The position numbers were made by a program, and so were the translations under genes. DNA of 64,000 nucleotides, from the NCBI GenBank assembly GCA_020381345.1, contig GCA_020381345.1_3636.1, one strand, 5' to 3'. The stretch is from a phage. The notes under the pieces were generated by a model that worked only from the letters and a program-made list of their open reading frames with translations, searched no databases and was not told the origin of the DNA. This document shows positions 23,427 through 55,069 of this stretch, in pieces (the stretch's first letter is position 1; every line of letters starts with the position of its first letter).

Positions 23427-24446
23427 TCATTTACCACAGATCTCTTTGTATGCTGCTTCCACTATGCTAAACACTTCAGGTCTGTAGTGAAAGAATTCAG
23501 TGCTTCCACTAAATGCTTTAGAGAAGTTTATTTTATACTTATTGAAGGCTTCATGCACAGATTTTTCTACACTCAGTATGTTTTCAGTCGATCCGCCCCA
23601 TGTTTTTACTATGTGGAGATCATAAATACCTGCACCAGCCTTCTTGGATGCTCTTAATATCCTTCCCTTCCTCGCTTCTACATTGACGCTCACACCGATC
23701 TTCATAAGTGTTGGCGCTTCTAAGTTATCAACCATGAGGTAAAGCTTCCCATAGTTGTGAGATAAGAAACCGTTTTTGGCACATTTAGGGCATCCACGAC
23801 CAGACAGGTGGCAAGAAGGTGTCTGGGTGAAGTGATTTCCACAAGTGTTGCAGATTATCTCTACCTTATCTTCGCAAGTCATATAATCTATAAAAGAGTA
23901 GTCATATTTATCGCCATGGATTTCTTTGGCTCTTTCTATGAATTCAGGGCCTTTATTCCTTTTTGCTGCGCTAATGAGTTTACTACACTCAGGGCACCCT
24001 TGGCCTTTCAAATGGTTAGATGGGGATTGCAAGAACACTCCGTGCTCAGGGCATACAATTTTTACAGGAGTTTTATAGTTAACATATCCAACCTTAGAAT
24101 AATCATAGGTGTCACCGTGGATTTTTACAAATTTTTTGATAATATCACTAGAATCGTTTCTAAGCTTATTGCCTACTGGCACTCTACCACACTTAGGACA
24201 CCCACTACCGTCAAGGGTATGATGTCCAGCGATCTGCGTAAACTCACCATGAACAGGGCATACAATTACAACCTTACTTTTAGCAGTTTTATATACGGTT
24301 TTTGAATAGTCATATTTATCGCCATGTACTTCTCTAGCTCTTTTTGTAAATTCTTCAGTCGTAAGTTGTTTTCCTCTAGGCATCTTTGATCCCTCTTGGT
24401 TCTCATAGATTAGCCAAGTATGCCACATCCTTGTGGCTTCTGTCAA
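23427..24446 (-). CDS. free-standing endonuclease-like protein with three zinc-ribbon repeats and GIY-YIG-like C-terminal domain
   Basis: Three ~50-aa repeats HGDKYDYS..CPxHGxF..GxGCPKC; C-terminal GKLYLMVDN..MKIGVSVNVEARKGR; inserted between nrdD and nrdG; likely start at internal MPRGK. Confidence 0.55.
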   Translation of the reverse strand: MTEATRMWHTWLIYENQEGSKMPRGKQLTTEEFTKRAREVHGDKYDYSKTVYKTAKSKVVIVCPVHGEFTQIAGHHTLDGSGCPKCGRVPVGNKLRNDSSDIIKKFVKIHGDTYDYSKVGYVNYKTPVKIVCPEHGVFLQSPSNHLKGQGCPECSKLISAAKRNKGPEFIERAKEIHGDKYDYSFIDYMTCEDKVEIICNTCGNHFTQTPSCHLSGRGCPKCAKNGFLSHNYGKLYLMVDNLEAPTLMKIGVSVNVEARKGRILRASKKAGAGIYDLHIVKTWGGSTENILSVEKSVHEAFNKYKINFSKAFSGSTEFFHYRPEVFSIVEAAYKEICGK

Positions 24447-24449
24447 GTA

Positions 24450-25412
24450 TCAGCAACTACAACTTCCATAGTGCTTAACCCGTTCTATAACTTCCGCTTG
24501 CTTACCTTTATTGTAAGGACGGGAGTTAGGACTGGAAAGGTATCCAGACACACGTCGAATTACACTGATCGTTCCCTCTTCATGGTTTCCACACTCTGGA
24601 CATACAAAGCCTCTAGCTGTTGCACTGAACTCACCAGAGAAACCACACTTGAGACATTTATCCACAGGCTGGTTGATACCAAAATACATAATGTGTTTAT
24701 ATCCGAAATCAACAAGAGCTTCCAAAGCATCTAAGTTGTTTTTCAGATTTGGTGTCTCTACGTATCCGATGTTGCCACCAGAGGAGATCATAGCAAAACC
24801 TTCCTCATACTCCCACTTATCAAAAGGAGAGCTATTGATCCATACTGGCTGATGGAAACTGTTGGTGAGATATTCATGCTCGTGCTTCAACACTTCAGGA
24901 TATTCACGATCCAGACAGGTTGCAGCTTTATAGCATAGACTCTCAGAAGGGGTGCCGTACAAGCTAAACGCTAGTCTACTTTCCTTCTTGTATCTCTCAC
25001 AAGCATCTCTCATGTGCTGAAGTATTCCAAGAGCTAAAGCCTTGTCACCCTCCCTGCCCAAAATCTGACAGGTTTCATACACACCAATATACCCAATACT
25101 GATGGAAGCGTACCCGTCATAGAAGAGTTTATCAATACTCTCTTCAGGGTCCAGGCGAGCAAGAGCGCCTTCACACCACATGATAGGGTTCTGCCCTGCC
25201 TTTGTCCCTTTTAGACGATTAACCCTTACAAGGTGAGCCTCGTATGCAAGATCCAGGTATTCGTCAAGAACTGCAAAGAAATCAACACCTTCCGTCTTAG
25301 CTTTTGCCGCAATCATTGGCAAGTTAAGGCTAACAACACCCAAGTTGAATCTGCCAAGGTATTTCTCCTCGCCTGTTACAGGGTCGCTATATTTCGATAA
25401 GAAACTTCTACA
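24450..25412 (-). CDS. nrdD: anaerobic ribonucleoside-triphosphate reductase NrdD, exon 3 of 3
   Basis: Starts CRSFLSKY and ends with glycyl-radical motif RRVSGYL; the track prefix MDLRTTLNIM is intron read-through. Confidence 0.8.
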   Translation of the reverse strand, partial: CRSFLSKYSDPVTGEEKYLGRFNLGVVSLNLPMIAAKAKTEGVDFFAVLDEYLDLAYEAHLVRVNRLKGTKAGQNPIMWCEGALARLDPEESIDKLFYDGYASISIGYIGVYETCQILGREGDKALALGILQHMRDACERYKKESRLAFSLYGTPSESLCYKAATCLDREYPEVLKHEHEYLTNSFHQPVWINSSPFDKWEYEEGFAMISSGGNIGYVETPNLKNNLDALEALVDFGYKHIMYFGINQPVDKCLKCGFSGEFSATARGFVCPECGNHEEGTISVIRRVSGYLSSPNSRPYNKGKQAEVIERVKHYGSCSC

Positions 25413-26174
25413 CATTATGTTCAGGGTGGTTCGCAAGTCCACCCCCGCACCTTTACGTGCTGCTGCATGTTCCCATGCAGATCAGACTATATCTTCACAC
25501 TTAGTGTGTCTACCATTTCGAGTGTCATCGGCTTACACCCTACACCGCTACATTCATCACGGTTAGTCGTTAGGCATTTCGTAACAGAACTCGTAATCAT
25601 AGTTATTAGGCGCACCACGTTTCAGGATAGCAGATATTCTTTTTCTATCCACTCCTAAAACATCAGCACAACATCTCAGACTTTTAAAGTGGAAAACCTC
25701 ACCAGTTAATTTGTTGGTGGCTTTCACACCGTGGCATCTTGTGTAAAAAGCATAACAGTTGTTGTTGTATCCTTCTTGCGTATTGTCTGGGCAAGCTCCC
25801 CACTCAAGGTTGTATACACTGTTATCTTTCCTGTTGTCCCCTTTGTGCTTAACATAGGGTAAATTGTCTGGATTTGGTAAGAACGCTTCAGCAACAAGTC
25901 TGTGAACCCTTAGGCAAACAGTCTTTTTGTTCTTGCGTATCCTAACAAGACGGTAACCTGTGTTTATCTCTTCCCACGAATGAATAATTCTTTCATTTTC
26001 GTAGCGGGTGCAATAAACATTGCCCATCTCGTCAATTTCATAACCTTCAAAATCACGAATTTGTTTTCTCATTTCAGGACTCCTCTTGGTCAGGAGTTCT
26101 GTTACGTTTAGCACGGGATTGTCCGTTCTGGAGTTTCCCCGTTTAGATAGATTTTACATGAGCAGTTATAGTTT
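25413..26174 (-). mobile_element. group I intron (nrdD intron 2) carrying an HNH homing endonuclease ORF
   Basis: 762-bp insertion between in-frame exons; exon ends in U and intron ends in G; contains CTAAACGGGG and ACAATCCCGTGCTAAA elements and a 3' block GATATAGTCTGATCTGCATGGGAACATGCAGC. Confidence 0.7.
25563..26072 (-). CDS. HNH homing endonuclease (intron-encoded, about 169 aa)
   Basis: HNH region RVHRLVAEAF..KHKGDNRKDNSVYNLEWG; RBS AGGAG before internal ATG; frame differs from nrdD. Confidence 0.7.
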   Translation of the reverse strand: MRKQIRDFEGYEIDEMGNVYCTRYENERIIHSWEEINTGYRLVRIRKNKKTVCLRVHRLVAEAFLPNPDNLPYVKHKGDNRKDNSVYNLEWGACPDNTQEGYNNNCYAFYTRCHGVKATNKLTGEVFHFKSLRCCADVLGVDRKRISAILKRGAPNNYDYEFCYEMPND

Positions 26175-26474
26175 ACCCATGCTCGTTACTTTACCATCTG
26201 TCGAGCCTGTCACTTTACGATTTAGTGGAACAGAGACAAAGTCAGGATAAATCCGCTCTGCAGAGCATTCCAGAGCTAATAGTTTCAAATCATAGTTAGG
26301 ATCTCCAGGGTTCATGTTGACACCCTCTTCTAGGAAGAACAGCACTTTAGGGAACACAGGTGTGATACGTTCTTCACCAAGACCCATTTTGTGGACTTTC
26401 AAGTAGTTTTTGGTAATCATTCTACCAAATACTGAGGTGTCCAGACCTAAACTTAATGTGATAAAAGGGGTTTG
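26175..26474 (-). CDS. nrdD: anaerobic ribonucleoside-triphosphate reductase NrdD, exon 2 of 3
   Basis: In-frame translation QTPFITLSLGLDTS..VFPKV..GDPNYDLKLLALECS..KVTGS..SMG matches the middle of E. coli NrdD. Confidence 0.75.
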
Positions 26475-26731
26475 CGGTCCCCACCCTTATGTTTCCACAA
26501 GGCCAGACTATCTCTTGCCTGAAATCACACCGTGTGATTCTTAATCAGACCTCTGCGTTTCGGAATCTTCCATAATCCCTACACCAAAAGGTTAGTCGTT
26601 ACAACCGCCTCACTCCTTGTGAAGCTAGTCACGGGATTGGCATAGCTTTCGCCTTAGCGTTCCCCGTTAGCCAGCGATCAGCTGACCCCTCATACTGAGG
26701 TTAGCAGAGTTTTAAAACGGCCAGTTTGTTA
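26475..26731 (-). ncRNA. group I intron (nrdD intron 1), ORF-less, about 257 nt
   Basis: Separates exon 1 (..NTLTSVNG) from exon 2 (QTPF..); the apparent exon 1 stop TAA is the intron start; GCCGTT near the intron 5' end can pair with exon end AACGGU; 3' end AGATAGTCTGG resembles the other introns. Confidence 0.6.
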
Positions 26732-27592
26732 ACCGTTGACAGAAGTTAACGTATTGATTTGATAGAGCAAAGTCTGCATGCTGTCAAACACGTCTTTATC
26801 TGTCATTTGCATTGCAACAGTCTCAGCATCTGGCAACCAATGTTCCTGGCAAAATTTAAGGTTCTTCTCATAGGTTGCTTCAGCATACTGTGCCAGATAA
26901 TGATCAATATGGCTCATAGTCTGACCACCATATTGAGCACTAGCTACCGCACTAGAGATTTGACTAAGGATTGTTGTTGCAACCCCTATTGACTTCGGCT
27001 TACTGACATGGGCGTTACCAATGTTGAATCCGTTTTCCAACATATCTGGATAATTTACCAAACAACAGTTTGTTAACGGACTGATCAAGTAGTCAAGATC
27101 ATGCACATGGATGAAGCCTCTATTGTGCTCTTCTGAGACACGGTCTGGCAGGATCTGTGTTGATGCAAGGTGTTTGCTAAGGATGCCTGCAAGCAGGTCA
27201 CGATGAGTGTGTACATGATTGGTAGGCTTATTTGCGTTTTCTTTTGTAAATTCATCACAAGTGCGATCCAAGAAGCCACTAATATCTGCAAGCAGTTTTC
27301 CACCTGCCTCTCTGTTATTATCTCTTGTCTGCCTATACTGGATGTATTCTCTGGCTGCACATTTTAAACCCATATCCATAAGAGCGTCTTCAACAAGGAT
27401 ATGGATATTTTTTACAGAGATCGTGCACTGGTCGGTTGGTAGATTGTTAGCAACAACTTCATTAACCGCGCAGGCGATCCGGTAAGCTTCTTCTTCAGTA
27501 TGTCCAGACTCAAGTAAGGCGGACTCTGCCGCCTTGATCACCTTAATTCCGTTATAGAACTCTTCTCTACCGTCCCGTTTTACAACTTTCAC
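26732..27592 (-). CDS. nrdD: anaerobic ribonucleoside-triphosphate reductase NrdD, exon 1 of 3
   Basis: N-terminal ATP-cone-like region MKVVKRDGREE and HRDLLAGI..HDLDY match class III RNR. Confidence 0.8.
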
Positions 27593-50499: not shown

Positions 50500-50574
50500 G
50501 CCCTGTTAGCTTAGTGGATAAAGCAGCGGCCTTCTAAGCCGTTGACACTGGTTCGAGTCCAGTACGGGGTGCCA
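50500..50574 (+). tRNA. tRNA-Arg (anticodon TCT)
   Basis: Hand-folded cloverleaf: acceptor GCCCTGT/ACGGGGT, anticodon loop CTTCTAA, T-loop TTCGAGT, encoded CCA. Confidence 0.7.
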
Positions 50575-50704
50575 AGTTCTTTTTAATGTAGCTTACTTTA
50601 GCAGAGTAAATCTTCGGCAAGTGGCGGTAACCACTTTACCGATACCTCATAGTTAGTGGTGAGAACACTAGCTATTTTAAAAAGAATTTAAATATTAGTA
50701 TTTA

Positions 50705-50792
50705 GGTGAGTTAATTCCGTAGGGGTAGCGGGGCAGACTGTAAATCTGTTATCATTGCGATTCGGGTGGTTCGACTCCATCACTCACCACCA
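50705..50792 (+). tRNA. tRNA-Tyr (anticodon GTA), long variable arm
   Basis: Acceptor GGTGAGT/ACTCACC, anticodon loop CTGTAAA, T-loop TTCGACT, CCA; 88 nt. Confidence 0.6.
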
Positions 50793-50906
50793 AATTTATA
50801 TTTTTAAATGCATAAATCATACAGATAATGGCATTGATATTTATCGTCGTTTATACTAGTCACTAACTGCTCGAAAATCAGTGTCATTATCAGTATTGTT
50901 TATAAA

Positions 50907-50997
50907 AGAGGGTAGGGAGCAATGGTGCTCAAGCGGTCTTGAAAACCGTCCCGTTGAGGATTACTCGATGATGGTTCGATTCCATTATCCTCTGCCA
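50907..50997 (+). tRNA. tRNA-Ser (anticodon TGA), type II
   Basis: Acceptor AGAGGGT/ATCCTCT, anticodon loop CTTGAAA, T-loop TTCGATT, CCA; 91 nt. Confidence 0.6.
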
Positions 50998-51095
50998 TAT
51001 TGTTGACCTTGTAATTAAGCGAAAGCCGGAAGCAGAACCGGATTATCAAATGTTACAGTCGTCATCGCCGACTAGCAACATGGTCAACATACTGA

Positions 51096-51192
51096 GCTAG
51101 GTAAGCCCTTTGGCAAGGGCGAGGATTTTTAATCCTGAAAATAGACGAGGTAGTCGTTGAATACATAGGTGGTTCGATTCCATCACCTAGCA
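51096..51192 (+). tRNA. atypical tRNA-like element (97 nt), anticodon uncertain
   Basis: Acceptor GCTAGGT/ACCTAGC, D-arm GCCC/GGGC, T-arm GGTGG-TTCGATT-CCATC, but non-canonical anticodon arm, 29-nt extra arm, A at position 8, no CCA. Confidence 0.35.
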
Positions 51193-51199
51193 CCTTTTT

Positions 51200-51275
51200 G
51201 CTGATGTAGCACAATTGGTAGTGCAATTGATTTGTAATCAATAGGTTGCAGGTTCAAGTCCTGCCATCAGCACCA
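51200..51275 (+). tRNA. tRNA-Thr (anticodon TGT)
   Basis: Acceptor GCTGATG/CATCAGC, anticodon loop TTTGTAA, T-loop TTCAAGT, CCA. Confidence 0.7.
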
Positions 51276-51276
51276 T

Positions 51277-51351
51277 GGCCCTGTAGCTGGAAGGTTCAAG
51301 CAAGCGACTCATAATCGCCAGACGGTGGTTCAATTCCACCCAGGGCCACCA
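51277..51351 (+). tRNA. tRNA-Met or Ile2 (anticodon CAT)
   Basis: Acceptor GGCCCTG/CAGGGCC, anticodon loop CTCATAA, T-arm GGTGG-TTCAATT-CCACC, CCA; D-stem weak. Confidence 0.55.
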
Positions 51352-51362
51352 AATAATGAATA

Positions 51363-51439
51363 CTCCGCGTAGCTCAGCTTGGTAGAGCGCCTGATTTGGG
51401 ATCAGGAGGTCGAGTGTTCGAATCACTCCGTGGAGACCA
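51363..51439 (+). tRNA. tRNA-Pro (anticodon TGG)
   Basis: Acceptor CTCCGCG/CGTGGAG, D-arm GCTC-AGCTTGGTA-GAGC, anticodon loop TTTGGGA, T-loop TTCGAAT, CCA. Confidence 0.7.
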
Positions 51440-52259: not shown

Positions 52260-52543
52260 GAGTTGCTACACTGTTTATTGTGTGCTTGTTATTATGTGGG
52301 TGTGCAACCAGCGTTGAGAGAGAATACAAGATTGACCCTCCGGATGTAGGAAGGTTGATTGTTAAACCCCCAGAAGGTGCCATGAAACCACCTGCTAAAG
52401 CTATGCCTTTGAAGAAAGGTGCGCCAGATGCAGTGAATTCTGGCATTATGAGGGATAATAATCTGTCTTGTAGCAATGATAGAGCTAAATTGATCATTTT
52501 GCAAGACTATATTAGAACACTGTTTCCAAAGGAGAGAGGTTAA
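52256..52543 (+). CDS. o-spanin (Rz1-like outer-membrane lipoprotein, 95 aa)
   Basis: Signal peptide with lipobox LLLCGC and proline-rich mature region. Confidence 0.6.
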   Translation: MRVATLFIVCLLLCGCATSVEREYKIDPPDVGRLIVKPPEGAMKPPAKAMPLKKGAPDAVNSGIMRDNNLSCSNDRAKLIILQDYIRTLFPKERG

Positions 52544-53285
52544 TGTCTAAGATTTACGGACCGTGTTCTGAAAAGCAGAAGATGATCCTAGAAAACGATG
52601 CAGATATTTTGGTAATCGGCGGTGCCGCAGGGTCTGGCAAGTCGTTCCTCTTGCAGTTGATGCCACTTAAAATTATTGATGACCCCCACAGCTCTGTGGT
52701 TATGTTCCGAAGAACAACCCCGCAGTTGGAAGGTGAGGGTGGACTATGGCCTAAAGCAGTAGCTATTTATAGTGATCTGCCTGAAAACATTAAGCCAAAG
52801 TTCAGAGAGAAGGATCATAAGTTCATTTTTCCACGGTTTGATCCGAACACTGGTAAGTGGGATAGAAGCAAAAAGGGAGCTGTTGTAAAATACTGCCACA
52901 TGGAGTATGTACAAGATAAGCTTAACCATCAGGGGCTTGAGTACACCATGGTTTGCTTCGATGAGGGCACGCAGTTCGAATGGGAGCAGATAGACTATCT
53001 GATGTCTCGTCTGCGATCTCAGTCAAAGTATCCATCAAGAATGGTTATCAGCTGTAACCCCGATTCAGAACACATGCTTGCCAAACTGGTTAGATGGTGG
53101 TTGGACGATGAAGGGTATCCAGATCCGGAGAAATGCGGTAAGAAAAGATATTTTATCCGACGCGACGGTGAATTTATATGGGGAGACTCTAAAGAAGAGT
53201 TGATAGAGAAATACACCACGGTTAACGGACTGGGTGTGGAGATCAAGCCAAGACCGTTGTCATTCTCGTTTATAGGCGCAACCAT
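52543..53285 (+). CDS. terL: terminase large subunit, exon 1 (ATPase domain); 3' boundary approximate
   Basis: Walker A ILVIGGAAGSGKSF and Walker-B-like MVCFDEGTQ; apparent stop at 53290 lies inside the intron. Confidence 0.7.
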
Positions 53286-54264
53286 TAAATGATAGTGGCT
53301 TCGTGCAGAAATGCACGTCGAATAACTTCGTTAATTGCTGGAAAATCCGATTGCTAAACGGACAATCAGCAGCTATAATTACCCTTCCGAACCTGTAGTA
53401 GGGAGATGTTTGAAATGAAAAATTTAGGCTTTTTAGGCTACAATCATTATTGTGCTACATACGATGGCAGAATTTACAGTCTGTATTCTAATAAATTCCT
53501 CCATCCTAATGTGCAGAAAAAGACTGGCTATGCTATGGTAACTTTGTGCGAGGACGGTAAAAAGTTCCAAGTGCTCGTTCACAGAGTGATTGCTATGACT
53601 TTTGTTGATAATGATAATCCCAGCGTGAAAACTCAAGTAAATCACCTTGATGGCAATAAGTTGAATAACGCCGCATGGAACCTTGAGTGGACAACACCTG
53701 AGGAAAACACACATCATGCTCATGAAATGGGACTTAAAAAGGACTATGTCAATAAATACAGGTCCCTAGATGATGCCACTGCTCTTGAAATATGTAGACT
53801 GTTAGAGCAAGGTGCAAGGGTAAAAGACATTTGTGAAATGTTTGGTGTCAATCAACCACTTGTAAGTGGTATAAAGAATGGCTCAGTATACCCAGATATT
53901 TCTAAAGAGTTTAACTTTAGAAAAGTGCCAACCTCTAATAGGATAAGTGAGCACAAGATAATAGGTATCTGCGAGGATCTTAGTGATAGGGTTTTGTGTG
54001 TAAATAAAATAGCTAAGAAGTGGGGCGTAAGTTTTAGTGTTGTTAAAGGAATAAAAGACCGTAAGACTTACACCTATATTTCAAACAATTACGATTGGTA
54101 ATGTAGTTCAACGACTATCCCGAGAGGGAGTAGGGCGCAAGCTTATGGCGCTCGAAAAGCGAAGCACCCTGAGATGGGTGGTGATATAGTCTACTCTGCA
54201 TGGTAACATGCAGCGGCACGTAATGGTGCGGAGGGTGGTGTTGCGACCACCTTTGAATATAAGG
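53286..54264 (+). mobile_element. group I intron in terL carrying an HNH homing endonuclease ORF; boundaries approximate
   Basis: About 980 bp between the ATPase and nuclease halves; contains CTAAACGGACAATC and a 3' block nearly identical to nrdD intron 2. Confidence 0.65.
53406..54101 (+). CDS. HNH homing endonuclease (intron-encoded, 231 aa)
   Basis: HNH motif VLVHRVIAMTF..VNHLDGNKLNNAAWNLEW; own RBS GGGAG. Confidence 0.7.
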   Translation: MFEMKNLGFLGYNHYCATYDGRIYSLYSNKFLHPNVQKKTGYAMVTLCEDGKKFQVLVHRVIAMTFVDNDNPSVKTQVNHLDGNKLNNAAWNLEWTTPEENTHHAHEMGLKKDYVNKYRSLDDATALEICRLLEQGARVKDICEMFGVNQPLVSGIKNGSVYPDISKEFNFRKVPTSNRISEHKIIGICEDLSDRVLCVNKIAKKWGVSFSVVKGIKDRKTYTYISNNYDW

Positions 54265-55069
54265 ATTCGATAATCCTGTCTGCTTGAGAGACAACCCAGA
54301 ATACCTTGCTTTTCTTGAAGGTCTGCCCGAGCTTGAAAAAGCCCAGCTTCTTCATGGCAACTGGTTTGCAAAGCCTGAGGGTGCAAACTATTTTCAAAGA
54401 TCTTTCCTTCGTGATGCCGATAGAGTACCCCTTGGATCAGTATCTTGCAGGGCATGGGATAAGGCAGGAACCGAGAGAACTTCCGGTAATAAATTTCCTG
54501 ACTTTACCGCCAGTGTTAAGGTAAGTAAAGATAGCGACGGCTTTTATTACCTGTCCGGTGATTATTGTCCTGAGAACGTGGATGACGGGAGGTATTCCAC
54601 AGGTCTGGAAGGCAAGTTCTGTAAAAAGGCTGGTGAACGAGATGTGATCATCAGGAAACAGGCGCAGTTTGATGGTGATGATTGTATAATCGTATTCTCT
54701 GTGGACCCCGGTCAGGCAGGTAAGAGTGAGTTCTTAACATCCTCCAGATCCTTGCTCGCCGAAGGGTTTAGGGTTGAAGAAGACCCAATGCCTTCCAACA
54801 AATCTAAACTGACAAGGTTCTCACCTTTTGCCAATCTTGCCCAACAAGGAATGGTTAGGATTGTAAAATCCAGTTTCCATCCTGATACTCTGGAAGCATT
54901 TCTGACTGAACTTGAAAAATTCAACGGGGAAAGATCAACATTTAACAGGAAAGACGACTGGGCCGACTGTGTAGCTTCTGCGATTAATTTCCTGGAGAAA
55001 GAGGAGGTAGCACTTCCTTGTGTGATTCCATCAATCTCATCACCTTCTATGTTCAAGCGTTTTATCTAA
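54265..55069 (+). CDS. terL: terminase large subunit, exon 2 (nuclease domain); 5' boundary approximate
   Basis: Open frame continuous from 54263 with no ATG; acidic residues consistent with a terminase nuclease domain (IIVFSVDPGQAG, DDWADC); track start is TTG. Confidence 0.65.

Follow-up and report, generated by a model that had tools for sequence, protein, structure and literature searches.

Three putative group I introns of the T4 td family in the terL and nrdD genes of an rV5-like coliphage

Results

Three interruptions with td-type group I cores

The phage contig GCA_020381345.1_3636.1, of which the whole 64-kb stretch was searched (hereafter the window), comes from an rV5-like coliphage of the genus Vequintavirus with 96-100% identity to sister genomes. 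Its terL gene on the plus strand is interrupted once and its nrdD gene on the minus strand twice. Judged from sequence and predicted helices, these interruptions are very probably three self-splicing group I introns of the family (subgroup IA2) that includes the td, nrdB and sunY introns of phage T4, and the likeness between the 3′ regions of the terL intron and the second nrdD intron would then reflect membership of this family and not a recent copy. The initial annotation, made from the sequence, had noticed this likeness and read it as a sign of intron mobility within the genome. Subgroup IA2 is said to go back to Michel and Westhof in 1990.

The terL intron lies at 53286-54264 (+; 979 nucleotides, nt; IA2/td-like), nrdD intron 1 at 26475-26731 (−; 257 nt, without an open reading frame, ORF) and nrdD intron 2 at 25413-26174 (−; 762 nt, td/sunY-like). 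Each of the three 5′ exons has a terminal U paired with a G of the guide, and G is the last base of every intron. In the terL intron and in nrdD intron 2, helices P1, P3-P9, P6/P6a, P7.1, P7.2, P9.1 and P9.2 could be paired base by base, with P2 in the terL intron only. The IA2 feature, P7.1/P7.2 between P7 and P3′, is found in all three; P9.1/P9.2 and a tail GAAYAUAAKG are found in the terL intron and nrdD intron 2 and not in nrdD intron 1. Differences between the two large introns are compensatory in P7.1 (UCCC/GGGA in terL versus ACCG/CGGU in nrdD intron 2), P7.2 (GGGCGC/GCGCUC versus GGGUGU/ACACUC) and P8 (CACCC/GGGUG versus CACAC/GUGUG), and the same 3′ architecture, with differing helix sequences, recurs in eleven family members. 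As a MAFFT alignment of these eleven 3′ halves was structurally inconsistent in P7.1, P8 and P9.2, the helices were checked sequence by sequence by constrained folds. When the ORF-less forms and nrdD intron 1 were folded without constraints for minimum free energy (MFE), the helices reappeared, with z of −4 to −5, except for P7, which is absent because it forms a pseudoknot with P3.

The motif GAKATAGTCT occurs exactly three times in the 64 kb (0.34 expected), once per intron, and AACGACTAWCC matches exactly at the same three introns, so that nrdD intron 1 does carry motifs related to the other two, as first noted. Searched by blastn, the 3′ cores of the two large introns match 497 and 883 phage records from many genera, including T4 td, nrdB and nrdD. 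The td, nrdB and sunY introns have the same layout of P1 and P3-P9 with P7.1 and P7.2, td and nrdB also have P9.1 and P9.2, and the strings AACGACUA, GAUAUAGUCU, CUGCAUGG..CAUGCAG and GAACAUAAUG are common to them and the window introns. The endonuclease ORF of td is likewise looped out ahead of P7; that of sunY comes just after P9.

Homologues of the large introns that have no ORF served as an independent measure. Against the Rfam group I model RF00028, with a gathering threshold of 50 bits, the ORF-less terL introns of the sister phages RudolfGeigy and C7 score 95.6 and 87.5 bits, and a copy of nrdD intron 2 that has lost its ORF, found at the corresponding site of phage AMO3598 and with a core about 87-91% identical to that of the window intron, scores 70.4 bits. 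Together with the T4 homology and the helices, these scores bear out the suggestion that the blocks belong to td-type group IA cores. A scan of the whole window at the gathering threshold returned tRNAs only and no group I intron, because the ORFs split the intron cores; in E-value mode the group I signal appears at the three intron sites only, and neither that scan nor motif searches found further family members in the window.

Several observations weigh against the reading as three group I introns of one family. The window copies themselves score only 24-35 bits, under the threshold: 24.4 bits (53276-53637) and 34.8 bits (53975-54213) for two partial matches in the terL intron and 35.3 bits for one in nrdD intron 2, in both cases because the ORFs split the cores. 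nrdD intron 1 has no ORF and nevertheless reaches only 29.2 bits (E 8e-5; MFE fold z −5.25). It also carries two hairpins at a non-canonical position between the P3 5′ strand and P4, CCUCA-GUA-UGAGG and GUCAGC-UGAUC-GCUGGC, which take up roughly 33 nt between CUCUGC and UAACGGGG and are flanked by UAA repeats. Both are kept with compensatory changes in the endonuclease-bearing versions of this intron in phages FFH2 and phita32, and their presence probably explains the low Rfam score. In addition, the ORF of nrdD intron 2 scores 19.7 bits on Pfam HNH_3, under the cut-off of 24.8, and, same-gene relatives apart, the two large introns are about as close to one another as either is to any other intron of the phage collection (E 2e-19), so that one may at some time in the past have passed from the one site to the other.

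The terL intron and its alleles

Exon 1 of terL (52543-53285, +, from the ORF list) ends in GCAACCAU, the final U of which makes the U.G pair of P1. The 5′ core of the intron (53286-53383), assigned by the base-by-base helix check and the MFE fold of the ORF-less homologue, begins with P1, CCAU|UA / UAGUGG, in which the U.G wobble is made with the internal guide sequence (UAGUGG, 53293-53298, the P1 3′ strand). It continues with P2 (53300-53322, with a GNRA loop), the P3 5′ strand (53326-53330), P4-P5-P4′ (53335-53372; P4 type UUGCUGG/UCAGCAG) and the 5′ strands of P6/P6a (53373-53383). A 231-residue HNH ORF with a helix-turn-helix (HTH) domain (53406-54101, +) sits in the P6a loop. The 3′ core (54097-54264), which includes the initially flagged 54102-54264, starts with the P6a/P6 3′ strands and then comprises P7 (54113-54117 / 54187-54191), P7.1 (54119-54128), P7.2 (54133-54153), P3′ (54160-54164), P8, P9 (54196-54213), P9.1 (54214-54231) and P9.2, whose 5′ strand begins at about 54233 and which extends to 54252, before the omega-G at 54264. 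Exon 2 (54265-55069, +) is set by the ORF list, the spliced frame and intron-less alleles.

Sister phage genomes provide natural deletion controls. The terL flanks are joined with a gap of 0 in phiWec189 and JES2013, rV5 and HdK5 have the intron at its full 979 nt, and in RudolfGeigy and C7 it is a 268-nt ORF-less form identical to the two core segments of the window at 88/88 and 156/159 positions. The full 979-nt element is found in 14 of the 154 records that match terL. Splicing in silico yields an uninterrupted TerL of 515 residues, identical to the protein of the intron-less phiWec189 allele, with the junction ATI|FDNP.

A second group I intron lies further upstream in terL of RudolfGeigy, rV5, HdK5 and JES2013 and is lacking from the window. 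In RudolfGeigy (record L005, 617-895) it scores 84 bits on RF00028; it is ORF-less there and in rV5, and in HdK5 and JES2013 it contains an ORF annotated as ‘recombination endonuclease’ (‘endonuclease VII’ in the RefSeq copy).

The two nrdD introns

Exon 1 of nrdD (26732-27592, −) ends in AACGGU, which pairs with GCCGUU as P1 of nrdD intron 1. Besides P1 this intron has P3, a td-type P4, P6, the P7 motifs, P7.1 (ACC/GGU), P7.2 (GGGAUU/GAUUCC), a long P8 and P9, and it is without P9.1/P9.2. Exon 2 (26175-26474, −) ends in AGCAUGGGU; P1 of nrdD intron 2 is CAUGGGU / GCUCAUG, with GCUCAUG as the internal guide sequence. This intron has no P2 and has a td-type P4 (CGGGG/UCCCG), P7.1 at 25563-25544 and P7.2 at 25540-25520, and it ends in ACAUAAUG. 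Its HNH ORF, 169 residues from the ATG, lies at 25563-26072 (−). Exon 3 (24450-25412, −) starts with UGU AGA AGU UUC, encoding CRSFL. Spliced in silico, NrdD is an uninterrupted protein of 707 residues with the junctions SVNG|QTPF and TSMG|CRSFL.

At the site of nrdD intron 1 the exons are joined with a gap of 0 in phiWec191, and in RudolfGeigy the NrdD coding sequence (CDS) carries a joined annotation. For nrdD intron 2 a 762-nt gap separates the flanks in phiWec191 and in record L010, and nrdD of the RudolfGeigy type falls short of the window gene by exactly 762 nt and is colinear with it after removal of the intron, so that this limit rests on the match in length and not on a read junction. 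The comparison with intron-less alleles, proposed at the outset as a check, supports the group I reading.

It has to be considered whether TerL and NrdD are instead made as separate polypeptides that assemble after translation, the HNH genes being free-standing insertions. The pieces are annotated as separate CDSs in many GenBank records, NrdA of Aeromonas phage Aeh1 is split by mobE and does assemble post-translationally, and one HNH-associated insertion of the Certrevirus CB7 is unspliced (PMC7344957). However, the window introns have complete group I cores with the U.G pair of P1 and a terminal G, their ORF-less homologues lie well over the Rfam threshold, and the junctions fall within codons and conserved motifs that splicing restores exactly (ATI|FDNP, TSMG|CRSFL). 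Curators have also annotated joined CDSs, for terL (together with the HNH gene) in rV5 (DQ832317) and for terL, nrdD and polA in the BASEL phage records (PMC8594841). We therefore consider the absence of splicing highly improbable.

The embedded HNH endonucleases

Both large introns carry HNH ORFs, on opposite strands, as was first described. The terL ORF scores 28.0 bits on Pfam HNH_3 (cut-off 24.8), matches PDB entry 1U3E, labelled ‘HNH homing endonuclease’, over residues 11-154 (E 3.1e-11) and matches phrog_59 with an E of 6e-51; its counterpart in rV5 is annotated ‘HNH homing endonuclease’. The ORF of nrdD intron 2 matches 1U3E over residues 3-166 (E 1.8e-7) and phrog_59 with an E of 2.8e-32. 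We take 1U3E to be I-HmuI, and both ORFs are accordingly predicted to encode I-HmuI-like HNH homing endonucleases looped out of P6. In terL the last codons of the ORF (UGG UAA) are part of the P6a 3′ strand. The ORF of nrdD intron 2 is enclosed by a perfect 12-bp P6, GUAACAGAACUC/GAGUUCUGUUAC, whose 3′ strand (25592-25581) derives from the C-terminal codons, and its stop codon lies inside the P7 5′ strand, ACGACUAA. The ORF-deleted copy in AMO3598 retains exactly this C-terminal coding remnant, the P6 3′ strand.

The Shine-Dalgarno sequence GAGGAG of the nrdD intron 2 ORF lies inside a 6-bp hairpin, ACUCCU/AGGAGU (26097-26079). A Shine-Dalgarno sequence held in a hairpin resembles the sequestration seen for I-TevI, and translation of this ORF may be restrained in a similar way.

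Since HNH proteins take part in some phage packaging machines, as in HK97-like phages (Kala et al, 2014, as cited in PMC7344957), and the ORF sits inside terL, the HNH protein of terL might be thought a terminase partner and not a selfish element. This is extremely improbable. The ORF is missing from RudolfGeigy and C7, and the entire intron from phiWec189 and FFH2, all of them close relatives with the same TerL protein, and the ORF is therefore dispensable; moreover, an I-HmuI-like domain with an HTH DNA-binding tail is the architecture of an intron-encoded nickase.

A further ORF (23430-24383, −), directly downstream of nrdD, has a T5orf172/MUG113 (GIY-YIG-like) domain and repeated DUF723/DUF4379 zinc-ribbon domains, and probably encodes a free-standing homing endonuclease, next to the intron-rich nrdD.

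How alike the terL intron and nrdD intron 2 are

The near-identity first reported, of 54183-54238 (+) with the reverse complement of 25439-25493, is real, with 50 of 56 positions identical and one 1-nt indel, and it is part of a wider similarity. In a blastn comparison of the window with itself, 54127-54262 (+) matches 25546-25415 (−), the stretch of nrdD intron 2 from the 3′ side of P7.1 through P9.2, with 76.6% identity over 137 nt (E 1.8e-20), and this is the only significant non-self match. The Smith-Waterman score of the 3′ similarity is 65 compared with 9.2 ± 1.6 for 300 dinucleotide shuffles (z = 34.7). By the same measure the similarity between the 5′ halves of the two introns is insignificant (z 2.2), and nrdD intron 1 resembles the other two at the motif level only (z ≤ 2.7). 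Pairwise alignment, the other check proposed at the outset, thus upholds the relationship for one pair of 3′ halves and not for the 5′ halves or for nrdD intron 1. The elements said to be shared upstream of the HNH ORFs divide in a similar manner. ACGGACAATC forms the P5 3′ strand, J5/4 and the P4 3′ strand in both introns and is homologous; the 8-mer CTAAACGG is the P5 loop in the terL intron and J3/4-P4 in nrdD intron 2, and was rejected as a homologous core element because its structural positions differ.

Much of the 56-nt block is common property of the family. Its first 32 nt in terL, covering J8/7, P7′ and P9, are identical to T4 td at 30/32 positions, to T4 nrdB at 29/32 and to nrdD intron 2 at 29/32, so that P9.1/P9.2 is the only part specific to the pair. 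Over the 3′ halves the two window introns are 69% identical to one another, 60% identical each to T4 td and 72-73% identical to the nrdA intron of phiTE, which also has the P4 type of the terL intron. Relatives in the same genes of other genera are closer, at 85-87%: the terL intron of the Avunavirus 19-1-2, at the same site with its junction read, and the nrdD intron of the Justusliebigvirus VEcB.

Could one of the introns, for example nrdD intron 2, have been copied into the other gene within the Vequintavirus lineage, by reverse splicing directed by the internal guide sequence or by illegitimate endonuclease-driven insertion, and then have diverged? The uniqueness of the 137-nt match within the window speaks for such a transposition, as does the fact that P9.1 and P9.2 are far more alike in the pair than in comparison with T4 td or nrdB. 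Also in its favour, nrdD intron 2 (of phage H79, E 2e-19) ties with PD114 (5e-20) as the best match to the terL 3′ core in the phage collection outside same-gene introns, and guides, with exon ends compatible with P1, are kept across sites, as described below for terL/polA and for nrdD intron 2/T4 sunY. The two introns are, however, not one another's closest relatives along the whole core, nor are their endonucleases closely related, as they would be in a recent intragenomic duplicate. Their 5′ halves differ in P2 and in the type of P4, the HNH proteins are 28% identical over 105 residues, each intron has its 85-87% relative in the same gene elsewhere, the terL intron resembles the phiTE nrdA intron more in its 3′ half (73%) than it does its partner in the window, and a co-conversion-like tract at nrdD intron 2 implies a diverged donor phage. 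Transposition within the lineage is thus very unlikely, and the mobility within the genome that had been read from the similarity is unsupported in that form; the sequence comparison does not show a recent copy-and-paste between terL and nrdD. Gene conversion between the window introns was also considered and rejected, as by eye their P9.1-P9.2 tails are about as unlike one another as they are unlike the tails of same-gene introns in other genera.

Modules and guide sequences common to different genes

Parts of the introns are found in introns of other genes, which makes them mosaics. The P1-P2 module of the terL intron (53282-53322) recurs with about 87% identity in the polA intron of phiTE and other Vequintavirinae, among them further Vequintaviruses; those compared were EmilHeitz (record L019, 1489-1535) and phiTE. 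In the exon, the pentamer ACCAU precedes the terL and the polA intron alike, and continuity of the ORF at an HD|E motif verifies the polA junction. A P9.1 hairpin, GCACGUAAUGGUGC, normally a variable element, is common to the terL intron, nrdD intron 2 and the polA intron, three gene sites in all, and P9 of the polA intron differs despite the identical P9.1. In PD114 the intron at the same terL site instead has a P9.1 of the T4 nrdB type. Similarly, nrdD intron 2 (26163-26157, −) and T4 sunY (record L014, 1205-1222) have in common the guide GCUCAUG and the adjoining UAAAAUCU; they occupy different nrdD sites, with the exons CAUGGGU and UAUGAGU, respectively, both compatible with the guide through wobble pairs. 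The 5′ half of nrdD intron 2 is 82-85% identical to T4 td and sunY.

It is possible, though we hold it doubtful, that the introns of rV5-like phages form a pool of recombining modules that colonise new genes where the exon happens to match a kept guide sequence; the mosaic pattern that suggests this is made up of short segments.

Footprints of mobility between phages

The states with intron and homing endonuclease gene, with ORF-less intron and with an empty site are found at the same sites across about 150-300 related records. In nrdD, the first 35 nt of exon 3 (25412-25378, −) differ at 15 positions, synonymous by reading, from the intron-less RudolfGeigy, and the 100-nt bins over the junction of intron 2 contain 12 and 19 differences compared with mostly 0-6 per 100 nt elsewhere. 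In terL, where the window and phiWec189 differ at only nine positions, two of these flank the insertion site at −3 and +1, the former within P1. Variant exon sequences at the insertion sites are CAAT|CTTC for terL and TGCCGGAGTTTT... for nrdD. The dense exon differences beside nrdD intron 2 form a co-conversion-like tract that points to acquisition of this intron from a diverged donor phage by homing. Taken over both genes, the exon flanks favour homing from phage to phage in which exon sequence of the donor was carried along.

The nrdD gene also departs from that of RudolfGeigy near its 3′ end, at about 24650-24550 (−), where another patch has 28 differences per 100 nt.

Elsewhere in the window a cluster of tRNA genes for Arg, Ser, Thr, Met and Pro occupies 50500-51439 (+). 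It includes a 99-nt tRNA-like gene (51096-51194) with a long extra arm, to which ARAGORN gives a 4-base anticodon, and an Rfam tRNA match (50705-50789, 39 bits) that ARAGORN does not call.

Discussion

Group I introns splice by an established two-step reaction initiated by guanosine. From this chemistry and the anatomy described above, each intron would fold into a P1-P9 ribozyme, an external guanosine would attack the 5′ splice site after the U.G pair of P1, and the freed exon would then attack after the terminal G, joining the exons with the TerL or NrdD frame intact. The HNH enzymes are expected to nick the intron-less alleles of co-infecting phages, and repair would copy the intron with some flanking exon into the recipient. 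Such homing would give rise to the patchy present, absent and ORF-less states among sister phages. The likeness of the terL intron and nrdD intron 2 in their 3′ halves would follow from membership of one widespread family with a conserved core (P7, J8/7 and P9), of which both represent a sub-type with a common P9.1/P9.2.

T4 is the classic case of a genome with several homologous td-type introns in genes of nucleotide metabolism, a mutual homology reportedly described by Shub and colleagues in 1988. It differs from the window in several respects. T4 has no terL intron, its nrdD intron is placed 10 codons ahead of where nrdD intron 1 sits, none is found at TSMG|CRSFL, and its P9.1 sequence is not that of the window introns. 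The endonucleases of the T4 introns are I-TevI, II and III; the ORF of the td intron is annotated as ‘GIY-YIG nuclease family protein’, whereas those of the window are I-HmuI-like HNH proteins. I-HmuI itself comes from the DNA-polymerase intron of Bacillus phage SPO1. The window ORFs align with it over most of their length and all are intron-encoded HNH proteins; however, identity is low, the target genes are others and the C terminus of the terL enzyme is extended by an HTH-type region.

The nearest described system is rV5 itself, whose terL (DQ832317, ORF64ABC and ORF65) has the same 979-nt intron, HNH ORF and site at about 98% identity and, unlike the window, the second ORF-less intron upstream. 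Kropinski et al (2013; PMC3606486) described rV5 terL as split into three segments, with a homing endonuclease in one intervening sequence, and made no comparison of the terL intron with those of nrdD. In the Certrevirus CB7, HNH-carrying introns in terL, polA, nrdA and nrdB splice in vivo as shown by reverse transcription PCR (PMC7344957). CB7 and phiTE belong to the same subfamily, Vequintavirinae, and have introns in the same kinds of gene, but to another genus than the window phage. We considered these experiments as direct evidence for the terL intron and set them aside as such, as the phiTE match to the terL 5′ module is in polA; they are a link at the level of the family.

The introns are, then, ordinary selfish elements of a well-known kind, for which the records of sister phages already have annotations. 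Annotators should treat terL and nrdD of this phage as single intron-interrupted genes and not as fragments or pseudogenes, and the HNH genes as selfish homing endonucleases. The T4 pattern of several homologous td-type introns per genome is repeated here in a different phage family, and to it is added a well-resolved natural series of alleles, from intron with endonuclease gene through ORF-less to intron-less, with co-conversion footprints. What is mildly new is that the guide-sequence/P2 and P9.1 modules are common to introns in different genes, which could make these phages of use for studying how phage introns switch sites. Should the module pool prove true, it would be natural evidence for guide-directed site switching, whether by reverse splicing or by selection after ectopic insertion, and for recombination between introns in phages.

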